From positions 12,958,001 through 13,022,000 of the forward strand of contig OZ024756.1 in assembly GCA_964016885.1 (NCBI GenBank): DNA of 64,000 nucleotides. The letters are read 5' to 3'. Both the position numbers and the translations under genes were made by a program. Of this stretch, positions 6,946 through 63,650 are shown in pieces. Position 1 is the stretch's first letter. The number at the start of each line of letters is the position of its first letter. This stretch comes from Eledone cirrhosa (Eukaryota). The notes under the pieces are model-generated. The model was not told the origin of the DNA. It made no database searches and worked only from the letters and a program-made list of their open reading frames with translations.

Positions 6946-9900
6946 AACAGATTAAGGACTTACAATGACCCAGGTCTTATTCCCTGGATTTAACACTGTC
7001 AGTTTCAACAGATTAAGGTCTTACAATGACCCAGGTCTTATTCCCTGGATTTAACACTGTCAGTTGCAACAGATTAAGGACTTACAATGACCCAGGTCTT
7101 ATTCCCTGGATTTAACACTGTCAGTTTCAACAGATTAAGGTCTTACAATGACCCAGGTCTTATTCCCTGGATTTAACACTGTCAGTTTCAACAGATTAAG
7201 GACTTACAATGACCCAGGTCTTATTCCCTGGATTTAACACTGTCAGTTTCAACAGATTAAGGGCTTACTGTGACCCAGGTCTTATTCCCTGGATTTAACA
7301 CTGTCAGTTTCAACAGATTAAGGGCTTACAATGACCCAGGTCTTATTCCCTGGATTTAACACTGTCAGTTTCAACAGATTAAGGGCTTACAATGACCCAG
7401 GTCTTATTCCCTGGATTTAACACTGTCAGTTTCAACAGATTAAGGTCTTACTGTGACCCAGGTCTTATTCCCTGGATTTAACACTGTCAGTTTCAACAGA
7501 TTAAGGACTTACAATGACCCACGTTTTATTCCCTGGATTTAACACTGTCAGTTTCAACAGATTAAGGGCTTACTGTGACCCAGGTCTTATTCCCTGGATT
7601 TAACACTGTCAGTTTCAACAGATTAAGGACTTACAATGACCCACGTTTTATTCCCTGGATTTAACACTGTCAGTTTCAACAGATTAAGGGCTTACTGTGA
7701 CCCAGGTCTTATTCCCTGGATTTAACACTGTCAGTTTCAACAGATTAAGGACTTACAATGACCCAGGTCTTATTCCCTGGATTTAACACTGTCAATTTCA
7801 ACAGATTAAGGGCTTACAATGACCCAGGTCTTATTCCCTGTATTGAACACTGTCAGTTTCAACAGATTAAGGTCTTACTGTGACCCAGGTCTTATTCCCT
7901 GGATTTAACACTGTCAGTTTCAACAGATTAAGGGCTTACTGTGACTCAGGTCTTATTCCCTGGATTTAACACTGTCAGTTTCAACAGATTAAGGACTTAC
8001 AATGACCCACGTTTTATTCCCTGGATTTAACACTGTCAGTTTCAACAGATTAAGGGCTTACAATGACCCAGGTCTTATTCCCTGGATTTAACACTGTCAG
8101 TTGCAACAGATTAAGGACTTACAATGACCCAGGTCTTATTCCCTGGATTTAACACTGTCAGTTTCAACAGATTAAGGTCTTACTGTGACCCAGGTCTTAT
8201 TCCCTGGATTGAACACTGTCAGTTTCAACAGATTAAGGGCTTACAATGACCCAGGTCTTATTCCCTGGATTTAACACTGTCAGTTTCAACAGATTAAGGG
8301 CTTACAATGACCCAGGTCTTATTCCCTGGATTTAATACTGTCAGTTTCAACAGATGAAGGGCTTACAATGACCCAGGTCTTATTCCCTGGATTTAATACT
8401 GTCAGTTTCAACAGATTAAGGGCTTACTGTGACCCAGGTCTTATTCCCTGGATTTAACACTGTCAGTTTCAACAGATTAAGGGCTTACAATGACCCAGGT
8501 CTTATTCCCTGGATTTAATACTGTCAGTTTCAACAGATGAAGGGCTTACAATGACCCAGGTCTTATTCCCTGGATTTAACACTGTCAGTTTCAACAGATT
8601 AAGGGCTTACAATGACCCAGGTCTTATTCCCTGGATTTAATACTGTCAGTTTCAACAGATGAAGGGCTTACAATGACCCAGGTCTTATTCCCTGGATTGA
8701 ACACTGTCAGTTTCAACAGATTAAGGGCTTACAATGACCCAGGTCTTATTCCCTGGATTTAACACTGTCAGTTGCAACAGATTAAGGACTTACAATGACC
8801 CAGGTCTTATTCCCTGGATTTAACACTGTCAGTTTCAACAGATTAAGGACTTACAATGACCCAGGTCTTATTCCCTGGATTTAACACTGTCAGTTGCAAC
8901 AGATTAAGGACTTACAATGACCCAGGTCTTATTCCCTGGATTTAACACTGTCAGTTGCAACAGATTAAGGACTTACAATGACCCAGGTCTTATTCCCTGG
9001 ATTTAACACTGTCAGTTTCAACAGATTAAGGGCTTACAATGACCCAGGTCTTATTCCCTGGATTTAACACTGTCAGTTGCAACAGATTAAGGACTTACAA
9101 TGACCCAGGTCTTATTCCCTGGATTTAACACTGTCAGTTGCAACAGATTAAGGACTTACAATGACCCAGGTCTTATTCCCTGGATTTAACACTGTCAGTT
9201 TCAACAGATTAAGGACTTACAATGACCCAGGTCTTATTCCCTGGATTTAACACTGTCAGTTTCAACAGATTAAGGGCTTACAATGACCCAGGTCTTATTC
9301 CCTGGATTTAACACTGTCAGTTGCAACAGATTAAGGACTTACAATGACCCAGGTCTTATTCCCTGGATTTAACACTGTCAGTTTCAACAGATTAAGGGCT
9401 TACAATGACCCAGGTCTTATTCCCTGGATTTAACACTGTCAGTTGCAACAGATTAAGGACTTACAATGACCCAGGTCTTATTCCCTGGATTTAACACTGT
9501 CAGTTGCAACAGATTAAGGACTTACAATGACCCAGGTCTTATTCCCTGGATTTAACACTGTCAGTTTCAACAGATTAAGGGCTTACAATGACCCAGGTCT
9601 TATTCCCTGGATTTAACACTGTCAGTTGCAACAGATTAAGGACTTACAATGACCCAGGTCTTATTCCCTGGATTTAACACTGTCAGTTTCAACAGATTAA
9701 GGGCTTACAATGACCCAGGTCTTATTCCCTGCATTTAACACTGTCAGTTTCAACAGATTAAGGACTTACAATGACCCAAGTCTTATTCCCCGGATTTAAC
9801 ACTGTCACTTTCAACAGATTAAGGACTTACAATGACCCAGGTCTTATTCCCTGGATTTAACACTGTCAGTTTCAACAGATTAAGGGCTTACAATGACCCA

Positions 9901-12900
9901 GGTCTTATTCCCTGCATTTAACACTGTCAGTTTCAACAGATTAAGGACTTACAATGACCCAAGTCTTATTCCCTGGATTTAACACTGTCAGTTTCAACAG
10001 ATTAAGGACTTACAATGACCCAGGTCTTATTCCCTGGATTTAACACTGTCAGTTGCAACAGATTAAGGACTTACAATGACCCAGGTCTTATTCCCTGGAT
10101 TTAACACTGGCACTTTCAACAGATTAAGGTCTTACAATGACCCAGGTCTTATTCCCTGGATTTAACACTGGCACTTTCAACAGATTAAGGACTTACAATG
10201 ACCCAGGTCTTATTCCCTGGATTTAACACTGTCAGTTGCAACAGATTAAGGACTTACAATGACCCAGGTCTTATTCCCTGGATTTAACACTGTCAGTTTC
10301 AACAGATTAAGGGCTTACAATGACCCAGGTCTTATTCCCTGGATTTAACACTGTCAGTTGCAACAGATTAAGGACTTACAATGACCCAGGTCTTATTCCC
10401 CGGATTTAACACTGTCAGTTTCAACAGATTAAGGGCTTACAATGACCCAGGTCTTATTCCCTGGATTTAACACTGTCAGTTTCAACAGATTAAGGGCTTA
10501 CAATGACCCAGGTCTTATTCCCTGGATTTAACACTGTCAGTTGCAACAGATTAAGGACTTACAATGACCCAGGTTTTATTCCCTGGATTTAACACTGTCA
10601 GTTTCAACAGATTAAGGACTTACAATGACCCAGGTCTTATTCCCTGGATTTAACACTGTCAGTTTCAACAGATTAAGGGCTTACAATGACCCAGGTCTTA
10701 TTCCCTGGATTTAACACTGTCAGTTTCAACAGATTAAGGACTTACAATGACCCAGGTCTTATTCCCTGGATTTAACACTGTCAGTTGCAACAGATTAAGG
10801 ACTTACAATGACCCAGGTCTTATTCCCTGGATTTAACACTGTCAGTTTCAACAGATTAAGGACTTACAATGACCCAGGTCTTATTCCCTGGATTTAACAC
10901 TGTCAGTTTCAACAGATTAAGGACTTACAATGACCCAAGTCTTATTCCCTGGATTTAACACTCTCAGTTTCAACAGATTAAGGGCTTACAATGACCCAGG
11001 TCTTATTCCCTGGATTTAACACTGTCAGTTTCAACAGATTAAGGACTTACAATGACCCAGGTCTTATTCCCTGGATTTAACACTGTCAGTTTCAACAGAT
11101 TAAGGACTTACAATGACCCAGGTCTTATTCCCTGGATTTAATACTGTCAGTTGCAACAGATTAAGGACTTACAATGACCCAGGTCTTATTCCCTGGATTT
11201 AACACTGTCAGTTGCAACAGATTAAGGACTTACAATGACCCAGGTCTTATTCCCTGGATTTAACACTGTCAGTTTCAACAGATTAAGGGCTTACAATGAC
11301 CCAGGTCTTATTCCCTGGATTTAACACTGTCAGTTGCAACAGATTAAGGACTTACAATGACCCAGGTCTTATTCCCTGGATTTAACACTGTCAGTTGCAA
11401 CAGATTAAGGACTTACAATGACCCAGGTCTTATTCCCTGGATTTAACACTGTCAGTTTCAACAGATTAAGGACTTACAATGACCCAGGTCTTATTCCCTG
11501 GATTTAACACTGTCAGTTTCAACAGATTAAGGGCTTACAATGACCCAGGTCTTATTCCCTGGATTTAACACTGTCAGTTGCAACAGATTAAGGACTTACA
11601 ATGACCCAGGTCTTATTCCCTGGATTTAACACTGTCAGTTTCAACAGATTAAGGGCTTACAATGACCCAGGTCTTATTCCCTGGATTTAACACTGTCAGT
11701 TGCAACAGATTAAGGACTTACAATGACCCAGGTCTTATTCCCTGGATTTAACACTGTCAGTTGCAACAGATTAAGGACTTACAATGACCCAGGTCTTATT
11801 CCCTGGATTTAACACTGTCAGTTTCAACAGATTAAGGGCTTACAATGACCCAGGTCTTATTCCCTGGATTTAACACTGTCAGTTGCAACAGATTAAGGAC
11901 TTACAATGACCCAGGTCTTATTCCCTGGATTTAACACTGTCAGTTTCAACAGATTAAGGGCTTACAATGACCCAGGTCTTATTCCCTGCATTTAACACTG
12001 TCAGTTTCAACAGATTAAGGACTTACAATGACCCAAGTCTTATTCCCCGGATTTAACACTGTCACTTTCAACAGATTAAGGACTTACAATGACCCAGGTC
12101 TTATTCCCTGGATTTAACACTGTCAGTTTCAACAGATTAAGGGCTTACAATGACCCAGGTCTTATTCCCTGCATTTAACACTGTCAGTTTCAACAGATTA
12201 AGGACTTACAATGACCCAAGTCTTATTCCCTGGATTTAACACTGTCAGTTTCAACAGATTAAGGACTTACAATGACCCAGGTCTTATTCCCTGGATTTAA
12301 CACTGTCAGTTGCAACAGATTAAGGACTTACAATGACCCAGGTCTTATTCCCTGGATTTAACACTGGCACTTTCAACAGATTAAGGTCTTACAATGACCC
12401 AGGTCTTATTCCCTGGATTTAACACTGGCACTTTCAACAGATTAAGGACTTACAATGACCCAGGTCTTATTCCCTGGATTTAACACTGTCAGTTGCAACA
12501 GATTAAGGACTTACAATGACCCAGGTCTTATTCCCTGGATTTAACACTGTCAGTTTCAACAGATTAAGGGCTTACAATGACCCAGGTCTTATTCCCTGGA
12601 TTTAACACTGTCAGTTGCAACAGATTAAGGACTTACAATGACCCAGGTCTTATTCCCCGGATTTAACACTGTCAGTTTCAACAGATTAAGGGCTTACAAT
12701 GACCCAGGTCTTATTCCCTGGATTTAACACTGTCAGTTTCAACAGATTAAGGGCTTACAATGACCCAGGTCTTATTCCCTGGATTTAACACTGTCAGTTG
12801 CAACAGATTAAGGACTTACAATGACCCAGGTTTTATTCCCTGGATTTAACACTGTCAGTTGCAACAGATTAAGGACTTACAATGACCCAGGTCTTATTCC

Positions 12901-14147
12901 CTGGATTTAACACTGTCAGTTTCAACAGATTAAGGGCTTACAATGACCCAGGTCTTATTCCCTGGATTTAACACTGTCAGTTTCAACAGATTAAGGACTT
13001 ACAATGACCCAGGTCTTATTCCCTGGATTTAACACTGTCAGTTGCAACAGATTAAGGACTTACAATGACCCAGGTCTTATTCCCTGGATTTAACACTGTC
13101 AGTTTCAACAGATTAAGGACTTACAATGACCCAGGTCTTATTCCCTGGATTTAACACTGTCAGTTTCAACAGATTAAGGACTTACAATGACCCAAGTCTT
13201 ATTCCCTGGATTTAACACTCTCAGTTTCAACAGATTAAGGGCTTACAATGACCCAGGTCTTATTCCCTGGATTTAACACTGTCAGTTGCAACAGATTAAG
13301 GACTTACAATGACCCAGGTCTTATTCCCTGGATTTAACACTGTCAGTTGCAACAGATTAAGGACTTACAATGACCCAGGTCTTATTCCCTGGATTTAACA
13401 CTGTCAGTTGCAACAGATTAAGGACTTACAATGACCCAGGTCTTATTCCCTGGATTTAACACTGTCAGTTGCAACAGATTAAGGACTTACAATGACCCAG
13501 GTCTTATTCCCTGCATTTAACACTGTCAGTTTCAACAGATTAAGGACTTACAATGACCCAAGTCTTATTCCCTGGATTTAATACTGTCAGTTTCAACAGG
13601 TTAAGGGCTTACAGTGACCCAGGTCTTATTCCCTGGATTTAACACTGTCAGTTGCAACAGATTAAGGACTTACAATGACCCAGGTCTTATTCCCTGGATT
13701 TAACACTGGCACTTTCAACAGATTAAGGGCTTACAATGACCCAGGTCTTATCCCCTGGATTTAACACTGTCAGTTTCAACAGATTAAGGACTTTCAATGA
13801 CCCAGGTCTTATTCCCTGGATTTAACACTGTCAGTTTCAACAGATTAAGGGCTTACAATGACCCAGGTCTTATTCCCTGCATTTAACACTGTCAGTTTCA
13901 ACAGATTAAGGACTTACAATGACCCAGGTCTTATTCCCTGGATTTAACACTGGCACTTTCAACAGATTAAGGGCTTACAATGACCCAGGTCTTATTCCCT
14001 GCATTTAACACTGTCAGTTTCAACAAATTAAGGACTTACAATGACCCAAGTCTTATTCCCTGGATTTAATACTGTCAGTTTCAACAGGTTAAGGGCTTAC
14101 AGTGACCCATGTCTTAATCCATGGATCCATTACTCTCAGTTTCAACA
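6946..14147. repeat. 61-bp tandem satellite (GGACTTACAATGACCCAGGTCTTATTCCCTGGATTTAACACTGTCAGTTTCAACAGATTAA), about 118 copies
   Basis: Pattern shifts 1 nt per 60-nt line, giving a period of 61; rare variants recur at 2257 bp (37 monomers). Confidence 0.98.
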
Positions 14148-14160
14148 GTTTGACTTTGAC
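14101..14160 (-). CDS. Candidate 60-nt exon of an unidentified minus-strand gene (VKVKLLKLRVMDPWIKTWVT; possible ATG at 14130)
   Basis: Strong acceptor ttttagttcagttttccag|, donor cact|gtaagc, only one open frame, ATG in GTAATGG context; no homology recognised. Confidence 0.4.
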
Positions 14161-20807: not shown

Positions 20808-21450
20808 CATCATCATCATCATTTTACGTCCGCTTTTCCCTGCTTGCAAGGGTGCGACGGATCTTATTCAGCACAGCATCTCTCCACTTGTCACGGTCCT
20901 TCGTCATCTCCACTCTGAGCTTCAGCGATCTGAGGTCTGTTCTCTCCACCTCCACCCATATTTTTCGTGGTCTACCTCTACCATGTCTTCCTTCAACTGG
21001 CATTTCCTGGCACTTCTTCACCCATCGGTCATCCTCCATGCGCATCACATGTCCATACCACCTCAGTCTTCTCTCCCGCACACTACATTCTATCCCTGTC
21101 AGACACAGTTTCTCTCTCAACACATCCATGCTGGGTCGTTCACGCAGATTGACATTGCACATCCAACGGAGCATGCTTGCCTCATTTCTCTCCAGCCGTC
21201 GCATATCCTCTGCAGTTGCTGCCCAAGTCTCACTACCATGCAACATCACGTTCTTCACACAGGCATCATATAACCGGCCTTTCGTACGCAGGGAGAAACC
21301 CTTCTTCATCAGCAGAGAAAGTAGCTCCCTAAACTTCTTCCAACTCGTCCTTATTCTAGATACTATGCCCTCAGAACACCCCCCTCCCATGCTAATCTGA
21401 TCTCCTAGGTACCGGAAGCTAACCACCACTTCTATAGCACCCGCCTGCAT
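20808..21450 (-). mobile_element. RTE LINE, 5'-truncated, with an intact C-terminal ORF of 208 aa
   Basis: FRYLGD..LHGSETW..RLRWYGHVMR..GRPRK motifs; (GAT)n tail. Confidence 0.95.
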
Positions 21451-23905
21451 TTGAAAAATGTGTCTATCAATGCGACTTCATCCTGGAGAAGAAAGATCTG
21501 GAAGCTGAAAGACCCCTCGGCCAGTAACAGATTTAAAGATATTTTACTCAACGCCTACGACAGTAAAGAAGAACAGATAGAGACATTCAATGTAGAAGAA
21601 CACTGGGAGTTCCTAAAAAATAACTTACTAGAGGCGACGGATGAGATCTGTGGCTGGAATAAGACCACAAGCAGGAGGAGAGTGACTTGGTGGTGGAACA
21701 ATAAGGTAGATGAGGCAGTTAAGGCCAAGAGACAGGCATGGAAAGAATGGAAGAACGGGGGAAGCAGGGTACATTACATAGAGACCAAGAGGGAAGCTAG
21801 GCGAGGCAGTGTGTCAGAGAGAATTGTGATGTCATTGGAGAGAAGTGTATCCGGAATAATAAAGGTGAGCTTGCCCTCACAAGTGCTGAGAAGAAAGATG
21901 CATGGAAGAGCCATTATGATAGATTACTAAATGAGAAGAATGCATGGGAAAAAGAGACCCAACCCCAAGTAGACCCTATAGAGGGGCCAGCAGTACAAGT
22001 CAGCAACAGCGTAGTAAGTAAGGCAATCAAAGATATGAAGATGAGGAAGGCAACCGGTCCATTGGGTATAGCTGCCGAGATGCTGAAAGCATCTGGGTCT
22101 GTAGGTCACACTATAACCACACGTATTGTTAACCAGGTAATACTAGAAGGTGTCATACCAAAAGATTGGTGCAGTAGCATCAATGTCAACTGCTACAAAG
22201 GTAAAGGTGATGCACTAGATAGAGGAAACTATAGAGGTATAAAGCTGATAGACCAGGTCATGAAAGTAACAGAAAAAGTTATAGCACAGTTGATTAGGGA
22301 CCGGGTGAAACTAGATGAGATGCAATTTGGGTTTGTACCAGGAAGAGGCACCACTGATGCCCTCTTCCTTGTGAGGCAGTAACAGGAAAAGTACCTAGCT
22401 AAAAGTAAGCCACTCTACCTGGCATTCGTCGATCTCGAGAAAGCCTTTGACAGAGTTCCACGTGCTATAATCTGGTGGGCTCTTAGAAAACTAGGAGTAG
22501 ATGAATGGCTTGTGAAAGCTGTACAAGCCATGTATAGGGGAGCAGTCAGCAAAGTTAGGATTAGCAATGAGTATAGCGAGGAATTCAGCGTACAGGTTGG
22601 TGTCCACCAGGGCTCTGTTCTTAGCCCTCTCCTGTTCATCATAGTCCTGCAGGCAATAACGGAGGAGTTTAAGACCGGATGCCCATGGGAACTCCTGTAT
22701 GCAGATGACCTCGCACTTATAGCTGAATCTATGGTAGAACTAGAGAAGAAATTCCAAACTTGGAAGCAGGGACTAGAAAGAAAGGGTCTCAAAGTCAACA
22801 TGACAAAGACTAAGGTCCTTGTAAGTAGACGAGAAAACAGAACCCAGATCCCCTCAGGGAAATGGCCTTGCTCAGTATGTAGGAAAGGTGTAGGTAGGAG
22901 CTCCATTCTCTGCCCCAAATGCAAACAATGGGTACACAAGAGATGTAGCGGGATCTCAGGAAGCTTAATTAAGAATGTAGGCTTCACATGTAGCAGCTGT
23001 GCTGGAACAGCAAGCAGCAAACAGCCACAGGAAACAAGTACCACCAATCTCTGGGAGGGCTCTGTAGAAACAGTAGACAGCTTCTGCTACCTAGGTGACC
23101 GAATTAGCAGCGGAGGTGGGTGTCCAGAAAGTACAATAACTAGGGTAAGAACGGGATGGAAGAAGTTCAGGGAGCTACTGTTACTGCTAGCTGCAAAAGG
23201 CTTCTCCCTCAAAATGAAAGGCAGACTGTATGATGCGTGTATCCGAACAGCAATGTTACATGGTAGTGAGACCTGGGCGCTGAAGGTGGAAGACTTACGT
23301 AGATTAGAAAGAAACGAAGCCTGCATGCTCCGATGGATGTGTAATAATAATATACACGAACGGCAAAGCATAAATGAATTGAGAGAGAGACTGAGCATAA
23401 GAAGAATCAAATGCTGTGTGCAGGAGAGGCGGTTGTGTTGGTATGGACATGTGATGCGTATGAAGGATGACAGCTGCATAAAAAGGTGCAGAGCGCTAAA
23501 AGTCAATGGAAACCGCAGAGTGGAGAGACCCAAGAAGACCTCGGATGAGGTGATAAAAGCCGACCTTACCCAATTACACCTCTCAAAGGCGATGACACAC
23601 AACCTCTGGTGTCACGCAGTAATACAGAGTACCCGACCTCCCATGGGTACAAGCTGAAGCATATAGACAATATGCCTCCACACCCTCCCACTGCAAAGTG
23701 GTCGCGGAGGTGCCACGGCAAAAAAGCACCCAGCACTCACTGTAAATGAGGTTGGTGTTAGGAAGGGCATCCAGCTGTAGAAATCAAGCCAAAATCAGTT
23801 CCTGTATGAGTAAGGCATGCTCAGCCGACCAGACACTGCCCACAACAGGACAACCCGTCTAACCCATGCTAGCATGGAAGAACGGACGTAAAACGGTGAT
23901 GATGA
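21451..23905 (+). mobile_element. RTE LINE, 5'-truncated and disrupted: RT domain, internal PHD-like finger and 3'UTR
   Basis: NYRGIKL, QFGF, FVDLEKAFDRV, GVHQGSVLSP and YADD motifs; stop at 22380 and frameshifts. Confidence 0.96.
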
Positions 23906-36178: not shown

Positions 36179-36267
36179 TGGCACCAGATGCTGGTCTGAG
36201 AGTTCCAATTGCTGAAATGGCCTATATGCTTGGAAGTTCTCCAGTGGTAGAGAATGATTCTAGCAAG
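36179..36267 (+). CDS. RBCK1: RBCK1 exon D, UBL-NZF linker
   Basis: ttttattctgacag| and AAG|gtatgt; 89 nt bridges the phase 1 end of exon C to the phase 0 start of exon E; (M)APDAGLRVPIAEMAYMLGSSPVVENDSSK. Confidence 0.75.
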
Positions 36268-36478
36268 GTATGTTAGTTGCTCTGTTAATCTTTTCATTAT
36301 ATAAGTTCTCAGATATTCTGTTAATCACACAGTCCTTCATGTGCTTTTTGTAAACTTTTCATTGTTAAGAAAGAAATCACATACCTTGTTATCAGCTGGA
36401 CAGGTTAGTGCTGACATGGGGTTCGGATTATAAAAATATGGTATGTTATTCTTGAACAGAGGCAAATTTAAAAGCATT

Positions 36479-36800
36479 GAGGCACATGGCTTAGTGGTTA
36501 GAGCATTGGCCTTGCAATTGAAAGGTTGTGAGTTCAATTCTCAGACCGGGTGATGTGTTGTTTCCTTGAGCAAGAGACCTTATTTCACATTGCTCCAGTT
36601 TACTCAGCTGTAGAAATGAGATGATAGGGACTGGGGTCCCTATCATTCCACTGCAAAGTGGTCGTGGAGGTGCCATGGCAAAAAAGCACCCATCACTCAC
36701 TGTAAATGAGGTTGGTGTTAGGAAGGGCATCCAGCTGTAGAAATCAAGCCAGAATCAGTTCCTGTCCCGCCCTTGCAAGCAGGGAAAAGCGGACGTAAAA
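36479..36800 (+). mobile_element. SINE family A copy
   Basis: Nearly identical to the 18599 copy. Confidence 0.9.
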
Positions 36801-36809
36801 AAAAAAAGA

Positions 36810-37215
36810 ATGATGAGGAGTTGGTGCTGCCATCAGAGAAGGTTATGAAGCAAATAAAAGGTTATAAGTACTTAGGTATACTGGAAGTTGATGAGATAAT
36901 GCAGGAGGAAAGGAAAGAAAAATTTAAGGTGGAATTACATGTGCAGACTGAGACTTATTCTCAAGTCGAAACTGAATGGATAGAATAAGATAGAAGCTAT
37001 CAATACATGAGCAGTATCATTCCTTAGAATGGGACAGGGGTGATCACGTGGACAGTGGAAGAGCTAAACAGTTTAGACTGAAAGATATGGAAGATATTGA
37101 CTAGATATGGAGTATTTTACCCAAAGGGCGACATAGACAGATTATATGTACCAAGAGAGAAAGAAGAGGACTGATGGGGAGTGAAGACAACATTAGAACA
37201 GAAGAAAATAACATG
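36810..37215 (+). mobile_element. Non-LTR retrotransposon RT fragment, probably R4/Dong-like
   Basis: YKYLGILE ... KLNG*NKIEAINT*AVS motifs with stop codons. Confidence 0.65.
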
Positions 37216-37295
37216 TTACATGGCTGAATACAGTAAATGTAATCTGAGTTTTTCGAAGAGGCTGTTTGCATAATTGCAAACAAATTGAATATTAA

Positions 37296-37480
37296 GGATT
37301 GGCAGTACCAGTAGAGGGTCGGACGCCATGCTTTGACGCATAGAGTTACGGTCCTTGCCATTCTGAGTTCAAATCCCGCCGAGGTTAACTTTGCCTTTCA
37401 TCCTTTCGGGGTCGATAAAATAAGGTACCAGTAATACACTGGGTTAATTGCTGGCCTTGTGCCAAAAGTAGAAACAATTA
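37296..37480 (+). mobile_element. SINE family B copy
   Basis: A and B boxes plus central domain. Confidence 0.85.
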
Positions 37481-37766
37481 TTAATATTTTAAAAACTCTG
37501 ATTACATTTATTGTATTCAGTCATGTAGAATGATAAACTATTTGTTAGTTATTTGAATATGGCAAAGCCGGCCATTAATCGCTTGTATACATGAAACTGA
37601 CTGGCCTATCTGTTGATATGCAAATCTAGCTGATAAGTGGGCCTGCTAATATGCAGATCTGACTGATCAGGCAGTCTGTTAATATGCAAATCAGGCCGAT
37701 CAGTCACTGTATATTTGAGATAATATATATTTTTACTAGCTCTGACAGTTGGAAGGTAAGCAGTAT

Positions 37767-37813
37767 ACTGCACTGATGAAGGGTAATCACCCAGAAACAT
37801 TAGTGTCTGCAGT
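37767..37813 (+). ncRNA. Type I hammerhead ribozyme
   Basis: Stem I ACTGCA/TGCAGT, CTGATGA, stem II GGGT-AATC-ACCC, GAAA, stem III ACA-TTAG-TGT, GUC triplet with cleavage after 37807. Confidence 0.85.
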
Positions 37814-38849
37814 TCTGTTTACATGCCCAGACAAGAGCAAGAATTACGGGGTCATTCTATTGACATGGCTTAAAGAGACTGTTTGCATAATTACAAACGA
37901 ATCAAATATTATTATTAATATTCAAAAAACTCAGGTTACATATATATATCATCATCATCACCATTTTACATCCATCCTGCCATGCTAGCATGTGCTAGAC
38001 AGGTTGTCCTGTTTTGGGCAATGCCAGGTCGGGTGACCATGTCTTGCTCATACGGGAACTGATTCTGGCTTGATTTCTACAGTTGGATGCCCTTCCTAAC
38101 ACCAACCTCATTTACAGTGAGTGGTGGGTGTGTTTTTTTACCATAGTGCCTACACGACCACTTTGCAGTGGGAGGGGGTGGAGGCATATTGTCTATATGC
38201 TTCAGCTTCGGCTTGTACCCGTGGGAAGTCCGGTCTTCTGTATCACAGCTGCTACATGTAAAGCCTACATTCTTAACTAAGCTTCCTATATATATATATA
38301 TATATAAAGTTTATTGGACGGTATGACACAACCAATAATACACCTTACGATATATATATATATATATATATATATCTCGTAAAAAATAAAAATGGTATTT
38401 ATAGGTCTCTACAAGTGGTAGGAGAGGGTGGGGAGTGGGATGGGTGCAGGTCATTGGTTGATAGAAAAGGGAATTCATTAAAAGCTAATTCTACAAAGCT
38501 ATAGTTTATTTTTTTTTATGTTTTTAGAGTAACAAGGGCAGACAGAATTCTATAAACAGGTTCAGGATGGCATACCAATCCTTGTCATTAAGTTTCTCTT
38601 AAGCTAACAGATGTCTATAAAATCAGTGGGGGGTCAGTCATGGTCGATAGAATTAAAGAAAAGGGAGATTCTTTAAAAGCTAAAATCATTAAGGTTCTAC
38701 TAAGTGACAAAGGTCTAGAGAATTCTGCAGACAGATTCAAAATACTGAGTGCATATCTTACTATTATCTTCGAACTTCTCTTAAACTAATCAACTATATG
38801 CCAAAAATCAACAGACACATTCACAAAAAAACAAAAAAACATACTCACT

Positions 38850-38960
38850 CACACACTTACGCGCAACCATAAACACACACACAAACACATATACACACAT
38901 AAAAACACACACACATATATAAAAATATATTCATATACATACATATACATACACACATAC

Positions 38961-38997
<37 letters not shown>

Positions 38998-38999
38998 AG

Positions 39000-39031
<32 letters not shown>

Positions 39032-39196
39032 TATATATACACATACACACACACATACACATACATACACACACACACACATATATACACATATAAATAC
39101 ACTCACACACATACATACAAACACAAATATACATGTGTATACATATACACACAAATACATATAGACATATATACATACATATACACAGACACATAT

Positions 39197-39248
<52 letters not shown>

Positions 39249-39486
39249 ACATACACACATACATACATACACATATATATACACACACATACGTATACAA
39301 ATATATATATATATATATATACATATACACATACACACACACATATATATATATATATATAAAAAACCACATACACACATATATACATATACACACACAT
39401 ACACACAAACACATACACACATATATATACATATACATATATATATATACATTCATATATATAACCATATACATATATACATATAT

Positions 39487-39525
<39 letters not shown>

Positions 39526-39562
39526 AACAAATATATACACATACAAACACACACACATACAT

Positions 39563-39605
<43 letters not shown>

Positions 39606-39626
39606 CATATATACACATACACACAC

Positions 39627-39669
<43 letters not shown>

Positions 39670-40101
39670 CATATACACACACATATATATATATACACGC
39701 ACACACATATATACACATATATATACACACACAAACACACACACACATACACATGCACATGTATATATATATATCCATATATATACAAACATACACATAC
39801 ATACACAGACCTATACATAAATATACACATATATATACAGACATATAACGCATATATACACACATATATACATATATATATATATACATATATATACACA
39901 TATATATACACACACGCGCATACACACATACACACACACACACACACAAATATATATACACACTCTCTCTCACGCACATATATATATATATATATATACA
40001 TATATACATATACACACACACACACACATACATATACACATATATATATATATATACATATATACACATACATATATATACACATATACATATATATATA
40101 C

Positions 40102-40148
<47 letters not shown>

Positions 40149-40189
40149 CAAATACACACACACATATATATATACACACCTGCCCACAC

Positions 40190-40245
<56 letters not shown>

Positions 40246-40263
40246 GCACACACATACACACAT

Positions 40264-40314
<51 letters not shown>

Positions 40315-40315
40315 T
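38850..40315. repeat. Compound (AT)n/(AC)n microsatellite tract
   Basis: Direct reading. Confidence 0.97.
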
Positions 40316-40445
40316 GGAAAGTTATATTTAAAATTGTTGGGTTACAACTAGTAAATATTTATAACTGATATAAAAGCACTCGACAAATATTTGGAGTATA
40401 TTTACAATATTAAATAAATGGAAACTATATTTATAAAACCATATT

Positions 40446-40511
40446 TATTTCATTATATATATTTCGGGGATATCATATTAACAATATGCTATGCCTTCAT
40501 CAGACAAAATA
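40446..40511 (-). ncRNA. Type I minimal hammerhead ribozyme (antisense copy)
   Basis: Reverse complement of 42816-42881 with one change in stem I. Confidence 0.7.
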
Positions 40512-42815
40512 CAATATAAACAGTTTTATAGATAAATATATTCGACATACCGTTATAACACCGATTTGCATTTGAAGAGGTTAAGCTGGCAGTGAAAAAA
40601 TTTTACACAGAGAGAAAGAAAGAGAGAAAAAAAGAAAGAAAGACAGAAAACGAAGAAAAGGAAGAAAAAGAAGAAATGCATGGAACAAAATAGAGAGATG
40701 GAAAGATAGATAAAGAGAAGAACTTCATGTAAAGAAACAGAAAGAGATATATATAAATATATAGAGAGGAAATAGAGATAGATAGATATATATATAGAAA
40801 ATTAGGTAGTGGGAGGTCATTTTGAGTAAATGTATCAATGATACATTTATTTATTTATTTATTTATTTAGCTCTAGTATTAATGTAAGGGAGATATATAG
40901 AGAGAGAAAAAAATATAGAGAGAGAAAAAAAATAGCGAGAGAAAAAAATTTAAAAATAGCCAGATATATTCGAGGCGTAAAAACCCTATGTTTTAATGTA
41001 TTAGTATTTATAAAACTTCCACTATATTGTAAATATCAGTATTCCTGAATGAGACAAGTATCCATAGTGTGTGAAAATTAAATCATCTTATGTTTAGCTT
41101 CTCAAAAAAACCCATATGTCTATGTGACAGCCACAAACATCCATGTGAATCCACACGAACAACCCTGCAAACTCTAAGTTCACGGAAAACATTCTCAATG
41201 TGGTATAAAAACCCGAGTATACATATATGTGTATTATTTTTCCTGTCTTTACTCTACAAGACCATCTATCAAGCAGAAATAGAGAGCAGACCTCAATATA
41301 CTAATAAAAATATATATCAGAAACAAAATTTAAAAAAATAAAAAGATAACAATAATAATAATAAGTAATAATAAAATAGAAAACTAAAAAAATATTACGA
41401 AAGAATATTACATATTAAAAATATTACATATTAAAAAATATTACGTATTAAAAAATATTACGTATTAAAAAATTTACATATTAAAGATATTAAAAATAAA
41501 AATAAAAATATTATAAAATACTACAATAATAAAAAAATAAAAAAATAAAAATAAACCACAAAGATCAACCCTTCAAAATTAATTGACAATATATTGCCAA
41601 GTTCATTATAAGACAAAGCCAAAATTATCTATCAAATCACATCTAGCAAAGATCATTTCAAAAAGTTTATGATGTCCAATTTGGTCTACATGTGCTCTTA
41701 TATTCAATATAGAAGTTTATCTAGTGTAAGGTTTATTCAAAATATTTGGAGCATCAGCTTTTAGGGTAGCTTAATTTTTCATGAGGAATGTTTAAATAAA
41801 AATTGTAGTATTTTATAATATTTTTATTTTTATTTTTAATATCTTTAATATGTAAATTTTTTAATACGTAATATTTTTTAATACGTAATATTTTTTAATA
41901 TGTAATATTTTTAATATGTAATATTCTTTCGTAATATTTTTTTAGTTTTCTATTTTATTATTACTTATTATTATTATTGTTATCTTTTTATTTTTTTAAT
42001 TTTGTTTCTGATATATATTTTTATTAGTATATTGAGGTCTGCTCTCTATTTCTGCTTGATAGATGGTCTTGTAGAGTAAAGACAGGAAAAATAATACACA
42101 TATATGTATACTCGGGTTTTTATACCACATTGAGAATGTTTTCCGTGAACTTAGAGTTTGCAGGGTTGTTCGTGTGGATTCACATGGATGTTTGTGGCTG
42201 TCACATAGACATATGGGTTTTTTTGAGAAGCTAAACATAAGATGATTTAATTTTCACACACTATGGATACTTGTCTCATTCAGGAATACTGATATTTACA
42301 ATATAGTGGAAGTTTTATAAATACTAATACATTAAAACATAGGGTTTTTACGCCTCGAATATATCTGGCTATTTTTAAATTTTTTCTCTCGCTATTTTTT
42401 TTCTCTCTCTATATTTTTTTCTCTCTCTATATATCTCCCTTACATTAATACTAGAGCTAAATAAATAAATAAATAAATAAATGTATCATTGATACATTTA
42501 CTCAAAATGACCTCCCACTACCTAATTTTCTATATATATATCTATCTATCTCTATTTCCTCTCTATATATTTATATATATCTCTTTCTGTTTCTTTACAT
42601 GAAGTTCTTCTCTTTATCTATCTTTCCATCTCTCTATTTTGTTCCATGCATTTCTTCTTTTTCTTCCTTTTCTTCGTTTTCTGTCTTTCTTTCTTTTTTT
42701 CTCTCTTTCTTTCTCTCTGTGTAAAATTTTTTCACTGCCAGCTTAACCTCTTCAAATGCAAGTCGGTGTTATAACGGTATGTCGAATATATTTATCTATA
42801 AAACTGTTTATATTG

Positions 42816-42881
42816 TATTTCGTCTGATGAAGGCATAGCATATTGTTAATATGATATCCCCGAAATATATATAATGAAATA
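42816..42881 (+). ncRNA. Type I minimal hammerhead ribozyme
   Basis: Stem I TATTTCGT/ATGAAATA, CTGATGA, long stem II containing CATATT-GTT-AATATG, GAAA, palindromic stem III, AUA triplet with cleavage after 42873. Confidence 0.75.
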
Positions 42882-42947
42882 AATATGGTTTTATAAATAT
42901 AGTTTCCATTTATTTAATATTGTATATACATATATATATATATATCT

Positions 42948-44412
42948 GGTGCAATAAGTAGCAGCAAGTGCCCACAAAATACTAGCTCCTTCAACTGCGC
43001 AGAGGGTTCTATAGAAATAGTGGACAGCTTCCGTTACCTGGGTGACAAAATCAGCAGTGGGGGAGGGTGCTCTGAAAGTACAGTAGCTAGAGTCAGAACT
43101 GGATGGAAAAAGTTCAGAGAGCTTATACCACTATTAGCCGCTAGAGGGTTCTCCCTAAAAATGAAAGGCAGGTTATACGATGCCTGCATACGAACAGCAA
43201 TGCTGCATGGCAGTGAGACCTGGGCATTGTGTGCAGAGGATATACGCAGACTAGAGAGGGACGAAGCTTGCATGCTCCGCTGGATGTGCAATAGTAATAT
43301 ACGTGAACGGCAAAGCATAAACGAACTAAGGAAAAAATTAGAAATAAGAGGGATCAGATGTTGTTTACTCGAGAGAAGGCTACGTTGGTACGGTCACGTG
43401 ATGCGCATGAAAGACGACAGCTGTATAACAAAGTGCAGGGCAATAAAGGTAGACGGTAGCCACGGAGTAGGCAGACCCAGAAAAACATGGGACGAGCTGA
43501 TAAATTCCGACCTCACACGCTTACACCTCTCCAAGACAATGTCACTGGACCGAGACCTTTGGCGGTACTCAGTAATAGAGAAGACCCGCCTTACCTAAAT
43601 ACAAAGTAAAAACCTACTACAGTCAGTAGGCATCTCTACCCCCCCCCCCCCCCCCCCCCCTCCCACCACCTCCACCCCATCCACACCGCCCCTTTCAATG
43701 TACAGTTATGTTGGTCCCACAACATCCAGGCCGAAACAAATGAGATCGTGTAGGTGTCATGACAAAAAACACACAGTCCACGCTGTAAATGTGGCCGTGT
43801 AGGCAACACGGTAAAAACCTCCCAGCCCCACACTGTAAATGTGGTTGGTGTTAGGAAGGGCATCCAGCTGTAGAAAACCCGCCAGACAGTCCACGCTGTA
43901 ATGTGGCCGTGTAGGCAACACGGTAAAAACCTCCCAGCCCCACACTGTAAATGTGGTTGGTGTTAGGAAGGGCATCCAACTGTAGAAAACCCGCCAGACA
44001 GTCCTATGCGAGCAAGACAACCACTCTTGCCTCAAGTGGGAAAACCCCCGTCCAAACCCATGCAAGCGTGGAACACGGACGCTAAACCTGATGATGATGA
44101 TGATGATGATATATATATATATATATATATATAGTAAGCCACAACATCCAGGCCGAAACAAATGAGGTCGTGTAGGTGTCACGACAAAAAAAACACACAG
44201 TCCACGCTGTAATGTGGCCGTGTAGGTAACACGGTAAAAACCTCCCAGTCCCACACTGTAAATGTGGTTGGTGTTCGGAAGGGCATGCAGCCGTAGAAAA
44301 CCCACCGGACAGTCCTATACGAGCAAGACAACCAAACTTGCCTCAAGTGGGAAAATTACCGTCCAAACACATGCTAGCGTGGAAGATGGACGTTAAACGA
44401 TGATGATGATGA
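42948..44412 (+). mobile_element. RTE LINE 3' portion with a duplicated 3'UTR and tail
   Basis: ORF 43020-43598 has RTE C-terminal motifs; two (GAT)n tails near 44100 and 44405. Confidence 0.93.
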
Positions 44413-44539
44413 TAAGGTTATTATTGGTTGTGTCATACGGTCCAATAAACTTTTGTTAGCAATATTAAGTTCTCTACGCTTTTGTATATCTCCAATTCCA
44501 TTTATGGGAACAGCTAGATGATGTAAAATGGAGTATTTG

Positions 44540-44814
44540 TATCAAAATAAAGATCCGAATTTCCAATCATTTTAATCACGACACATGTTTCAATAAGCGA
44601 TAGATCAATCGTGTGGCCATGATCGATCATCACTGATCTCGTCAGGTGAAAATTTTCTCCCTCATATCAAGGATTTGAAGACAATTCATTTTCACCTGAC
44701 GAGATCAGTGATAATCGATCATGGCCGCACGATTGATCTATCTCTTATGGAAACATGTGTCGTGATTAAAATGATTGGAAATTTATACCATGCCTTCGGA
44801 TCTTTATTTTGATA
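44540..44814. mobile_element. Palindromic MITE / fold-back element
   Basis: ~110-nt near-perfect inverted arms (CACGACACATGTTTC..TCGTCAGGTGAAAAT and its reverse complement). Confidence 0.85.
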
Positions 44815-44975
44815 TATATATATATATATATATAAAATTGCAAGTTGAAGAATTATTAGATAAAATATATACAGTCTTTCCTCTCCCTAGTCCATTTTAG
44901 ACCTCTCTCCCTTTCTTTTCCTCCCTCCATCCTCTCCTCTCCCTAAATATTATATCCACCTGTTTCTACTTGCAG

Positions 44976-45149
44976 CCTGGTTGGAAGTGTAATAAATGTA
45001 CATATTACAACCTTCCATTGCGGCCTGGTTGTGAGATGTGTACAGCACCACGGCCTCTCGACTATGAAGTACCAGATAACTACTCTATGAGCTCGACAGA
45101 GAAACACTGGAAAAAACAAGAGGAAGATGCAGAATTAGTCCAAAAAGAG
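44976..45149 (+). CDS. RBCK1: RBCK1 exon E, NZF (RanBP2-type) zinc finger
   Basis: ttgcag|; PGWKCNKCTYYNLPLRPGCEMC resembles HOIL-1L [21 protein letters not shown]; GAG|gtacag. Confidence 0.95.
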
Positions 45150-47388: not shown

Positions 47389-47586
47389 ACAGTATTTAGA
47401 CATGCAAACATGCCAGAGATATGTATTTGTCATTGTTTTTCATTTTTTCAATTTACTCACCACCCCTTTCTCTGTGATGTTAAACAATGATGATGATGTT
47501 TGCATTTCTATATACTAAACAGGTGTAAATTTATATACACATTTATGCAATGTCAGGTACTTTTATTTTGTATATATACATATTTA

Positions 47587-49993
47587 AATGGGTTGGGTGG
47601 AGTAGGAATCATGGTAGCAGAAAAGTGGGCAGATAAGATAATAGACATAAATAGAGTGAACGACAGAATAATTAAAATAAGACTTGTCCTAAATAGAACT
47701 ACTGTGACAATAATATCTGCGTACGCACCCCAATCCGGACTGCCTGGCGTTATAAAAGACAGATTCTATGAGTCATTAATGCTCACTACCTCCCAAATAA
47801 CCGACAGTGACTACATAATTATTGCTGGCGACCTAAATGATCACATTGGACAACATTGTGACGGCTATGACGGAATCCATGGAGACTATGGGTTTGGTAC
47901 TAGAAATGAGGAAGGCTCCAGAATCCTGGAATTTTGTGACGCAAATAACCTAACTATCTGTAACACTAACTTCAAAAAATGAGACAATCACTTGATCACC
48001 TATAGATCAGGGGAACACGCCAGTCAGATAGATTATATCCTTACCAGAAGACGTGATAGAGTGTCTGTTGTAAGCACTAAATCCCTCCCGCATGAAGAAT
48101 GCACCTCCCAACATAGACTCAAAGTTAGCGACCTCATAGTCAGGACACGACGTACTTGACAACAGTGGAGGACTATCCTCAGGAGAAAAATATGGAAGCT
48201 AAAGGACCCCACAGCCAATAATAAATTTAAAAGCATATTACTTGATGCTTTTGACAGTAAGGAAGAGCAATTAGAGTCGTACAATATGGAGGAACAGTGG
48301 GAATTCCTGAAAGCTAACCTGCTGAAGGCGGCAGATGAAGTCTGTGGCTGGAGCAAACCTATAGGCAGGAGGAGAGTAACGTGGTGGTGGAACAGTAAGG
48401 TGGAGGAGTCAATCAAGTGGTCAGGAGGGAAGCTAGGAGACAAGTGTACTTCGCAAGAAGGGAAGCAGAGGAAAGAAAGTTCAAGCATGTTCTACAACGC
48501 GAGGACCAAAAACGTGAGGTGTTCAGGACTGCTAGGCAATGTGTCAAAGAAAACCGAGATATTGTCGGGGAGAAGTGTGTCCGTAATGATGATGGTGTAC
48601 TTGCCATCACTGATGCTGATAAGAAGGTAGCTTGGAAGTGTCACTACGAAAGGCTACTAAACGAGGAGAATAAATGGGAGAAAGACAGTCTCCCCCACAT
48701 TGATCCAATAGAGGGACCAGCAATGCAAGTTGAAGGTAGTATAATAAGTAAGGCAATCAAAGATATGAAGACGGGCAAGGCGGCTGAGCCTTCGGAAATA
48801 GTTGCTGAAATGCTGAAAGCATCTGGAACGGTGAGACACACCATGGTCACCCGGATAGTAAACCAAGTCATACAGAATGGGGTCGTACTGAAGGACTGGC
48901 GTAGCAGCATCATCATTAACTGCTACAAGGGTAAAGGAGATGCCCTAGATAGGGGAAACTATAGAGGCATTAAATTAATTGACCAGGTCATGAAGGTCAC
49001 AGAAAAAGTAATAGCGCAACTAATCAGAGAGAGAATTGATCTGGATGAAATGCAGTTCAGGTTTGTGTCAGGTAAAAGTACCACAGACGCTCTTTTCATT
49101 GTACGACAACTACAGGAGAAGTACCTAGCTAAAAGTAAACCCCTATACTTAGCCTTTGTTGACTTGGAGAAAGCCTTTGACAGAGTCCCGCGCCCCATTA
49201 TCTAGTGGGCTCTCAGAAAACTAGGTGTTGATGAATGGCTTGTGAGAGCTATACAAGCCATGTATAAAGAAACAGTCAGCAAGGTTAGAATTAACAACGA
49301 ATATAGTGAAGAGTTTAGCGTAAAAGTTGGTGTTCATCAGGGCCCCGTCCTTAGCCCCCTCCTATTATTGCCCTTCAGGCTATAACAGAGGAGTTCAAGA
49401 CCTACTGCCCATGGGAACTCCTATACGCTGATGATCTAACGCTTATAGCTGAATCAATGGCTGAACTAGAGAAGAAATTCCAAACATGGAAGCATGGCCT
49501 AGAATCAAAAGGCCTTAAAATTAACCTGTCTAAGACTAAAGTGCTAGTATGTGCTAAAATAGGGCACTGGTCCAATCTGGGAAATGGCCATGCCCAGTGT
49601 GTAGGAAAGGAGTAAGCAGAAACTCCATTTTATGTCCCAAATGCAAAGTATGGGTGCATAAAAGATGTAGTGGGATCACAGGTAAGCTAACTAAGAATAT
49701 AGATTTTATATGTGGCCAGTGCTCAGGTGCAATAAGTAGCAGCAAGTGCCCACAGGTGTCACGACAAAAAAACACACAGTCCACGCTGTAATGTGGCCGT
49801 GTAGGTAACACGGTAAAAACCTCCCAGTCCACACTGTAAACGTGGTTGGTGTTAGGAAGGGCATCCAGCCGTAGAAAACCCGCCAGGTAGTCCTATACGA
49901 GCAAGACAACCAAACTTGCCTCAAGTGGGAAAATTACCGTCCAAACCCATGCTAGCGTGGAAGATGGACGTTAAACGATGATGATGATGATGA
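47587..49993 (+). mobile_element. RTE LINE (APE endonuclease, RT, PHD-like finger), internally deleted and joined to its 3' tail
   Basis: GVGI, SAYAPQ, GDLN, QIDY, DLEKAFD and YADD motifs; stops and frameshifts. Confidence 0.95.
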
Positions 49994-53557: not shown

Positions 53558-54466
53558 GGGGAGTGGATTGGCAGTAGAATCGGTAGATTGTCGGACAAGA
53601 TGCTTTTGGCATAGAGTTACGGCCTTTTACATTCTGAGTTCCAATCCTGCCGAAGTTAGCTTTGCCTTTTGTCCTGATGGGGTTAATAAACTAAAGTACA
53701 GGTGACTAACTGGAGTTGATTTAATCAACTTTCTCCTCCTTCCCAAATTGCTGGCCTTGTGCCAAATGTAGGAACAATTCTATACCGAGGAGACAAGTTA
53801 TAAATATTTTATATAAAACTAGTCACCATTTAAACCGGCCGTTTCCAGCCGGAACTCTCTCACTGTTCAAATTGGCCGTAACTGGGCACCCATACTGATG
53901 TTAAGGTATTGTTCTCAAAATAAAAAATATCAAAATCTCATAGATTCAATATTATGTGAAATACTTATGAGAGATTCAGCCTTTACTATGAAGATACAAT
54001 TGTATATACAGAGTAATGTGAATGCTAAAGGGTTAAAATATGTAATGTATATACTTGAATATAACCCGAAGAATATGTGACCAATAAATTGATGGTAGAA
54101 TAGTGAGTGGTTATATTCAAGTCATCATTATCATCATTTCATTTTACGTCTTCTTTTCCCTGCTTGCAAGGGTGGGACAGGAACTGATTCTGGCTTGATT
54201 TCTACAGCTTGATGCCTTTCCTAACACCAACCTCATTTACAGTGAGTGCTGGGTGCTTTTTTGCCGTGGCACCTCCACGACCATTTTGCAGTGGAATGAT
54301 ATGAACCCCAGTCCCTATCATCTCATTTCTACAGCTGAGTAAATTGGAGCAATGTGAAATAAAGTGTCTTGCTCAAGGAAACAACACATCACCCGGTCTG
54401 AGAATTGAGCTCACAACCTTTCAATTGCAAGGCCAATGCTCTAACCACTAAGCCATGTGCCTCCAT
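53558..54466. mobile_element. SINE B (53558-53780 +), MITE (53828-54035) and SINE A (54125-54466 -)
   Basis: Similarity to other copies in the window. Confidence 0.85.
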
Positions 54467-54714
54467 GACTTAGTGGTTAGAGCATTGGCCTCAAGTACAT
54501 ATGGAAATTATTTTATACAAGATTAATCACCATTTAAACATATAAATTACTTTAAAGATGGCAGTAATAAGTTGTGATTGTATTAGCACTTTGTTTTCTC
54601 AAACCAATGCAGATAAGAGTATTAGTTGGTTTTATTAAATATAATAAATATATATGTGTGTGTGTATATATGTATATATAGGTATATATACAAACATACT
54701 TATATATAAATATA

Positions 54715-56109: not shown

Positions 56110-56830
56110 TGGAGGGTTATATCCGTAGTAGTAGAGCATTCAGTCCATGGGATGAGTTTGGTAGAAGTAGTTCCACAACAGTTAGTTCACCATACCGAGA
56201 GTAAATGTTTCACCTTATGCAGATCCTCAGCTCGGTCTGAATGAAGTTGTATGGAAAAGGAAAAACAACTGTACGAATACGCATGCACAGAAACAGTCAC
56301 TTCTCCTGGGCAAGGTAAACCCATGATCGATCGATGTAAAGGAGATAACTGTGGATGTCCAGAATAAAATTTTTCAGGTTATTCAGGATATTAGATTGTT
56401 GATGTAAGTCAATCTGGAGCGTTGTAACTATGTAATAGGTGTTGCCAGATGTTATTAGGTTAACTTAGCAGGATATTGATCCTTTCTTCAATGCACAGTC
56501 CACAAGATGGATTTCCCCTTGCATATGGCTTTCGATTGGATGGAGTAGTCTACGCCTGAGTCCTTGGGGGACCATACGTGGCTCGTGAGTTTCGTGGACG
56601 ATCGTTTGTCCGGGTATCTAAAGTTCGACTGATGATTCAGGAAGCATTCCTTAAACCAGCTCCCAGCCATGCCTTCATATGATTTAACCTCTTATCGATT
56701 TGGTCTGTTAGAAGTGACCACTGCTTCGTAAATTACAGCGTGGTCACTTTTAACCAACCAAACTGATCTCAGTTTGACAATCGACACCGACAAATGGAAT
56801 GCGAGAAAGTTCTCCAGGAAAGTTAACCAG
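56110..56830 (-). mobile_element. Penelope-like element remnant: GIY-YIG C-terminus plus a 3' region with a degenerate hammerhead at 56194-56236
   Basis: FKECFLNHQSNFR..STKLTSHVWSPKD motif; ACCGAG-CTGAGGA..GAAA..CTCGGT. Confidence 0.75.
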
Positions 56831-56965
56831 GAATCTTTTAAAATCTCCACACCGAAGTTAACAAAGAACTTACTAGATCTACAAAACCAAATTGTGAAAT
56901 CATAATATAAAATTAAATCAAATTGTTTAGAACTACAAGTGAAGTCATTCTTTTCCTTTTTTTAA

Positions 56966-63112: not shown

Positions 63113-63254
63113 GTAAGTAATCAGACATATCATTATTGTACATGGATCTCATGTGATGTCCAGAATTTCACTCATTCTATCAATGGAACTGACCACAGCC
63201 ATTCATTCTATTCTTCTATTCTATGTGTGTATGTATATATGTAAGTAAGTTATG

Positions 63255-63650
63255 GTGCATGGCTCAGTGGTTAGAGCTTTGGGCTTGCAATCGAAAGGTT
63301 GTGAGTTCAATTCTTGGACCGGGTGATATGTTGTTTCCTTGAGCAAGACACTTTATTTCACATTGCTCCAGTTTACTCAGCTGTAGAAATGAAATGATAG
63401 GGACTGGGGTCCCTATCATTTCACTGCAAAGTGGTCGTGGAGGCGCCACGGCAAAAAAGCACCCAGCACTCACTGTAAATGAGGTTGGTGTTAGGAAGGG
63501 CATCCAGCTGTAGAAACCAAGCCAGAATCAGTTCCCGTATGAGCAAGACAAGGTCAGCCGACCTAACATTGCCCACAACAGGACAACCTGTCTAACCCAT
63601 GCTAGCGTGGAAGAACGGACGTAAAACAGTGATGATGATGATGATGATGA
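63255..63650 (+). mobile_element. SINE family A copy with an alternative RTE tail
   Basis: Same head as 18599; tail resembles 23690-23905. Confidence 0.9.

Follow-up and report, generated by a model that had tools for sequence, protein, structure and literature searches.

Penelope-like elements (PLEs) are described in PMC8557442 as usually having a 5'-truncated, inverted copy at their 5' end, a one-sided tail of 30-40 bp and a bias towards (TA)n targets, and Octopus PLE families with a (TA)n preference are tabulated there as well. According to the supplement of that work, Penelope-13_HM contains an inverted copy at nt 1-966, has hammerhead ribozymes (HHRs) on both strands, and has a (TA)n target. 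Head-to-head inverted pLTRs with target-site duplications of 8-10 bp have been described, self-priming was proposed for them, and small RNAs arise from PLEs that carry them (excerpts of PMC3846280). PLEs can also contain dual minimal HHRs (min-HHRs) on opposite strands, 100-700 bp apart; a single min-HHR showed no detectable cleavage in vitro, and dimers had low activity (PMC4209133, in part). For the Poseidon hammerhead, the available text of PMC11167929 reports cleavage only together with the protein of the element, and no RNA-seq reads ending at its site. Finally, young repeats are presented as the chief ADAR targets across animals in the consulted sections of PMC9989829.

Here we describe a palindrome of about 2.5 kb from Eledone cirrhosa, which is the longest inverted repeat of the window, i.e. 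of the whole 64-kb stretch of DNA that was analyzed. Local alignment placed the left arm at 40403-41527 (element sense on the minus strand) and the right arm at 41802-42924 (plus strand), inverted around a spacer of 274 nt at 41528-41801. The identity was 99.56% over 1129 alignment columns (40399-41527 versus 41802-42928), in agreement with the arms of about 1120 bp and the 274-bp spacer of the first-pass annotation. A T/T mismatch at 40402/42925 marks the limits of the arms, and the outermost few aligned columns are only matches between AT repeats. In total, the arms differ by two substitutions and two one-base gaps, the latter at 40942 and 41329. At the first substitution, A at 40506 is opposite C at 42821, as had already been noticed; the second, which had been placed near 40566, is T at 40565 opposite G at 42762. 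With only two substitutions in 1125 positions, the event would seem to be young, although gene conversion between the arms could mask its age. No extra copy of an arm, of the spacer, or of the extension described below was found in the 64-kb window. A search for a second copy of the spacer at word size 7 was also negative in the window, so that within these 64 kb the idea of a spacer captured from local DNA found no support.

The host gene is RBCK1/HOIL-1 on the plus strand, and tblastn with two octopod proteins yielded six collinear exons between 24874 and 63113. The repeat is housed in a phase 0 intron with GT..AG borders (36268-44975), located between the exons at 36179-36267 and 44976-45149, so that its previous assignment to an RBCK1 intron turned out to be correct. 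The downstream exon encodes a RanBP-type zinc finger (PF00641) and matches RBCK1/HOIL-1 of Argonauta hians (90%) and Octopus bimaculoides (84%). Inverted alignments in the RBCK1 span were counted when the arms were at least 100 nt long, at least 85% identical, and within 5 kb. Apart from the present repeat there were 12 such alignments, representing about four distinct sites, and the present repeat clearly exceeded all other rows (13 in total) in length and in perfection of the match. RBCK1 introns also contain other inverted pairs that might form dsRNA, namely 28899-29103/29319-29523, 29302-29532/31921-32151, 32413-34521/35553-35823, and 36648-36765/38052-38171.

Near-perfect arms beside a microsatellite of 1.4 kb could indicate a fold-back artefact of the assembly or of a read, and inverted PLE structures are described as a cause of assembly trouble in the accessible part of PMC8557442. 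However, the flanking exons are collinear and on one strand, the spacer is unique, and the outer ends of the two arms are not alike and are positioned where an end makes biological sense. In addition, both internal substitutions are transitions, one of them at a CpG. On these indirect grounds, an artefact is considered to be very unlikely.

Each arm contains one minimal type I hammerhead, and both point outward. The right hammerhead (42816-42881, plus strand) is in sense orientation to RBCK1, and its cut is predicted after position 42873 from the descriptor and from folding. Descriptor, alignment and folding identified the mirror hammerhead in the left arm (40446-40511, minus strand), with a predicted cut at 40454. 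The core CUGAUGA...GAAA is intact, the cut triplet is AUA, and stem I comprises 8 bp. Further features are an additional A behind the first core box, a long helix II, and a stem III with an 8-nt palindrome that forms only 2-3 bp, as is typical of the dimer-dependent type. In the left hammerhead, stem I is weakened by a single C-to-T change at a CpG. Both motifs had been reported at these positions before, and the type I descriptor recovered them, with three matches in the window versus none in each of 50 shuffled windows. The third match (37767-37813, plus strand) lies in the same intron, in sense to RBCK1, and is a solo hammerhead-like motif of the minimal type I that is unrelated to the other two. 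It has a stem I of 6 bp, a GUC triplet and a near-palindromic stem III, and no antisense partner was found for it in the window. Rfam called neither motif of the repeat as a hammerhead at the gathering threshold or at E<=10; the Rfam miRNA matches were rejected, as they were driven by the microsatellite. A pattern scan for this hammerhead type gave no match in viral contigs, and a single match in a metagenome contig, which was without stem I and overlapped the start of a bacterial-type ORF of 1092 aa, was dismissed as chance.

The monomer hammerhead fold was predicted at -3.7 kcal/mol, and in a nearest-neighbour model that contains no tertiary contacts its share of the ensemble was 2e-4 for the right motif and 3e-5 for the left motif. 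The stable stem III and the favoured monomer fold of a canonical monomer-active hammerhead are thus not predicted by the model. A double hammerhead was predicted to be more stable than two monomers (-20.0 versus -16.4 kcal/mol), but the free two-strand fold was still stronger (-24.9 kcal/mol). The motif looks dimer-dependent, and an RBCK1 transcript contains one sense copy of it.

A comparison with the PLE min-HHRs described in the consulted part of PMC4209133 revealed an intact core, an extra nucleotide after position 9, a palindromic stem III, a G-C start of the long helix II, and dual motifs on opposite strands as common features. In contrast, stem I has 8 bp instead of 4-5, and the two motifs are 2.3 kb apart instead of 100-700 bp. 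By eye, the hammerhead also differs from those of Hydra-1_Obim and of the Hydra-clade rows in the supplement of PMC8557442. Two 10-nt motifs of the present hammerhead were absent from the Naiad/Chlamys/Hydra supplement of that source, and no family named therein was matched. Like the non-LTR retrozymes in the available text of 10.64898/2026.07.22.740005, the repeat is non-coding, has a type I hammerhead, and is apparently PLE-derived. However, those retrozymes consist of direct tandem repeats, in which cleavage as a dimer is possible, whereas the motifs of the present repeat are on opposite strands and cannot form a dimer in cis. Because its motifs are inverted and direct tandem units are lacking, the repeat is not a non-LTR retrozyme.

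The two outer ends of the palindrome are only partly alike. Each arm terminates 51 nt beyond the predicted cut site. On the left copy only, a tail-like 3' extension of 87 nt follows (40316-40402, minus strand), which is not of microsatellite sequence, so that the distance from the cut site to the end of the extension is 138 nt. Beyond it lies an (AT)n/(AC)n microsatellite tract of 1.4 kb (38915-40315), which would represent the left part of the target. The right copy, in contrast, directly joins about 20 nt of (AT)n (42923-42945), the presumed right-hand continuation of the target. Comparison of the junctions revealed a candidate target-site duplication of 13 nt at 40303-40315 and 42923-42935 (both plus strand), the right copy of which overlaps the arm end with its first 2 nt. 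When the left breakpoint was slid along the microsatellite tract, a match of 13 nt or longer occurred at 80 of 1342 tract positions (6%), and at 30 of the last 300 (10%); because of this chance level, the duplication is suggestive only. At the inner junctions, the T/A-rich character of the spacer, read on the minus strand, carries on into the left arm. From the extension on the left side only and from this continuity of spacer and arm, we infer a longer copy on the minus strand (41801 to 40316), of which the spacer would be the upstream continuation, and a shorter, 5'-truncated inverted copy formed by the right arm.

These ends also bear on the view that the repeat is not the product of one PLE insertion step, but arose when a region with a pre-existing PLE end was copied by a local inverted duplication or by a fold-back DNA element. 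The long arms are rich in low-complexity sequence resembling that of the host, the repeat yielded no coding remnant, and hammerhead-like motifs are common in the window (three descriptor matches and one decayed motif), all of which would be compatible with such an origin. However, fold-back or MITE DNA transposons have terminal inverted repeats as the very ends of the insertion, and here the symmetry is broken because the 87 nt of non-microsatellite sequence lie outside the left arm only. Furthermore, both arms stop at the same distance (51 nt) from the predicted cut site, an extension on one side makes the ends asymmetric, and a candidate duplication is found in the (TA)n flanks; this combination fits PLE insertions. 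We regard a local duplication or a fold-back DNA element as quite unlikely.

Searches for coding remnants were negative. The repeat contains no ORF of at least 120 aa, and stop codons are present in all six frames of the spacer and of the arm core, at an ordinary density (P 0.18 and 0.12). For six read-through frames of the arm core and four of the spacer, 10 in total, Pfam gave no relevant match, a word search with one spacer frame yielded none from 33 candidates, and phmmer with another spacer frame had no match among 1.84 billion. The minus strand of the spacer may resemble a GIY-YIG end. A tblastn comparison of the repeat with an endonuclease-like remnant of the window itself was also blank (best E 0.31). 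The blank searches for reverse transcriptase (RT) and GIY-YIG are weak, because Pfam and the word search also missed this PLE-like endonuclease remnant, at about 56.4-56.85 kb. On visual comparison, the frameshifted remnant as a whole (about 56170-56850, minus strand) looks similar to the C-terminal endonuclease that the supplement of PMC8557442 shows for Hydra-clade PLEs, and a decayed hammerhead-like motif comes after it near 56200. As an intact ORF with RT and GIY-YIG is absent, the repeat does not represent an autonomous PLE, and its PLE descent is grounded in structure, not in sequence homology.

Structurally, the closest counterparts are complex inverted insertions of endonuclease-positive PLEs (consulted parts of PMC3846280 and PMC8557442), especially the Repbase entry Penelope-13_HM of the Hydra clade. 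The shared features are a head-to-head inverted, 5'-truncated copy of about 1 kb, HHRs on both strands near the outer ends, a (TA)n target, a one-sided extension, and a short target-site duplication, which is a candidate in the present case. Several differences were also observed. The Eledone repeat has no ORF or recognisable remnant, as far as the weak searches go; its extension is 87 nt long, in contrast to the 30-40 bp described for PLE tails (PMC8557442, in part); the two copies are separated by a spacer of 274 nt instead of a junction palindrome; and arms of 1.1 kb are much longer than the pLTRs of 181-218 bp in the accessible portion of PMC3846280.

Taken together, we are fairly confident that the repeat is an inverted PLE insertion, likely a single one, probably recent, and non-coding, in a (TA)n microsatellite of the RBCK1 intron. 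A type I minimal hammerhead is present near the 3' end of the element, an inverted 5'-truncated copy is adjacent and head-to-head to the primary copy, which was assigned from the extension and the junction, and the target is (TA)n or AT-rich. The Penelope-like origin that had been suggested before is thus well in line with the head-to-head copies, the one-sided extension, the (TA)n target and the min-HHR traits. In the proposed course of events, an endonuclease/RT encoded by an element and acting in trans would have cut the (TA)n tract, and the 3' end of the element RNA would have been copied twice, head-to-head, giving rise to the longer minus-strand copy with the extension and to the shorter plus-strand copy. 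The 13-nt duplication of the target would probably have been formed at insertion. The head-to-head arrangement of the two copies explains why a hammerhead motif is found near each outer end.

In a RBCK1 transcript, the left arm is antisense and is made first, followed by the sense ribozyme in the right arm, exactly the order that the first-pass annotation had deduced. This order is a by-product of the head-to-head geometry and represents no fit to RBCK1, because it is equally true of a minus-strand transcript. For the 66-nt motif, the duplex was predicted at -99.0 kcal/mol for the plus-strand pair versus -3.7 kcal/mol for the hammerhead fold, and at -102.9 kcal/mol for a minus-strand transcript. 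The proposed sequestration of the sense ribozyme by the antisense arm therefore stands as a prediction of the folding model. In the RBCK1 pre-mRNA, the arms are predicted to zip into a helix of about 1.1 kb before the sense motif is transcribed, so that the motif, which already seems weak and dimer-dependent, would be expected to stay inert.

It could be argued that the inverted copy was selected for this effect, i.e. that, without it, the ribozyme would cut the RBCK1 pre-mRNA, so that the lock allowed an insertion of the same origin to persist in the intron. The predicted sequestration is overwhelming and effective on either strand, and tandem hammerhead retrozymes are under-represented in Xenopus introns after size normalisation; however, 42-44% of the Xenopus retrozymes still overlap introns (both from the available text of 10.64898/2026.07.22.740005). 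Moreover, the solo sense hammerhead-like motif at 37767-37813 is present in the same intron without an antisense partner, single min-HHRs were inactive in vitro (PMC4209133, in part), and the Poseidon HHR required the protein of the element (PMC11167929, in part). Selection for self-masking is thus an unlikely explanation for the persistence of the insertion.

The first-pass annotation had also raised the possibility that editing gates cleavage, i.e. that ADAR editing opens the helix and frees the ribozyme for a conditional cleavage of the RBCK1 pre-mRNA. The geometry allows pairing, A is abundant in the arms (394 of 898 nt in the outer left arm and 246 of 895 nt in the right arm), and young repeats are the main editing targets of animals (PMC9989829, in part). 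Editing was simulated by placing inosine randomly on both strands, with 30 draws each at 10, 25, 50 and 75%, and one run at 100%. The weakest edited duplex had -73.0 kcal/mol, calculated with approximate inosine parameters and with the 1-kb tethering helix left out, and this is still far from the -3.7 kcal/mol of the hammerhead fold. On average, at least 49 of the 66 sense bases remained paired, and a duplex in which every antisense A was edited had -79.7 kcal/mol. Assuming independent sites, all five core adenosines would escape editing with a probability of 0.24 if 25% of the adenosines are edited, and of 0.03 if 50% are. The sole A-C mismatch of the duplex (40506/42821) is in stem I, and editing of the A would convert it to an I-C pair, resulting in a tighter duplex. 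In addition, the motif is of the dimer type, and only one sense copy is present per transcript. Because the simulated duplex never became weaker than -73 kcal/mol and the core adenosines are themselves open to editing, an editing-gated cleavage is not supported, and we consider it highly improbable. Rather, editing is predicted to scar the motif instead of freeing it. In the mostly non-subscription literature that was searched, no report emerged on editing as a gate for a ribozyme, or on the masking of a ribozyme by an inverted retroelement copy.

Irrespective of the ribozyme, dsRNA of kilobase length is what ADAR would typically act on in animals, by analogy with the edited intronic repeats in the consulted sections of PMC9989829, which likewise involve young, nearby inverted copies inside a transcribed gene. 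The present case differs from those repeats in that the arms stem from one insertion and include a ribozyme motif, and its editing is a prediction only. Because young repeats are the chief ADAR targets (PMC9989829, in part), hyper-editing of the repeat hairpin is likely by the same analogy. The helix would then share the fate of other young repeat pairs, and it would probably be removed together with the intron and have no regulatory role.

The window contains additional repetitive sequences. LINE-like fragments, which we take to be RTE, are located at 42948-43598, 21409-23657 and 47497-49205 on the plus strand and at 20824-21477 on the minus strand, with RVT_1 and PHD matches at 22383-23654; one 5'-truncated LINE-like piece begins about 20 nt beyond the right arm. 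Two abutting tandem arrays with 96-97% matches consist of 152 units of 45 bp with a strong C skew (1-6803) and of 118 units of 61 bp (6946-14148). A tRNA-like sequence at 63253-63322 on the plus strand (30 bits in Rfam) is the head of a dispersed repeat, probably a tRNA-derived SINE, and similar copies are found near 36475 and at 54137-54467.

In summary, the locus offers a clean and probably young case of an insertion pattern that is already known, from a lineage in which PLE hammerheads have been little described. As a convenient single locus, it lends itself to the questions of whether host pre-mRNA is ever cut by intronic PLE hammerheads, and of whether the fold-back geometry is favoured in introns. 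A bolder generalization, to which we assign a low probability, would be an antisense lock: fold-back PLE copies would neutralise their own hammerheads on either strand, survive in introns from which solo sense copies are purged, and seed kilobase substrates for ADAR or Dicer in the heavily editing cephalopod transcriptome, in this case in the LUBAC gene RBCK1. If this were true genome-wide, it would explain the tolerance of ribozyme-bearing retroelements in genes, and it would point to an origin of long substrates for editing in cephalopods.
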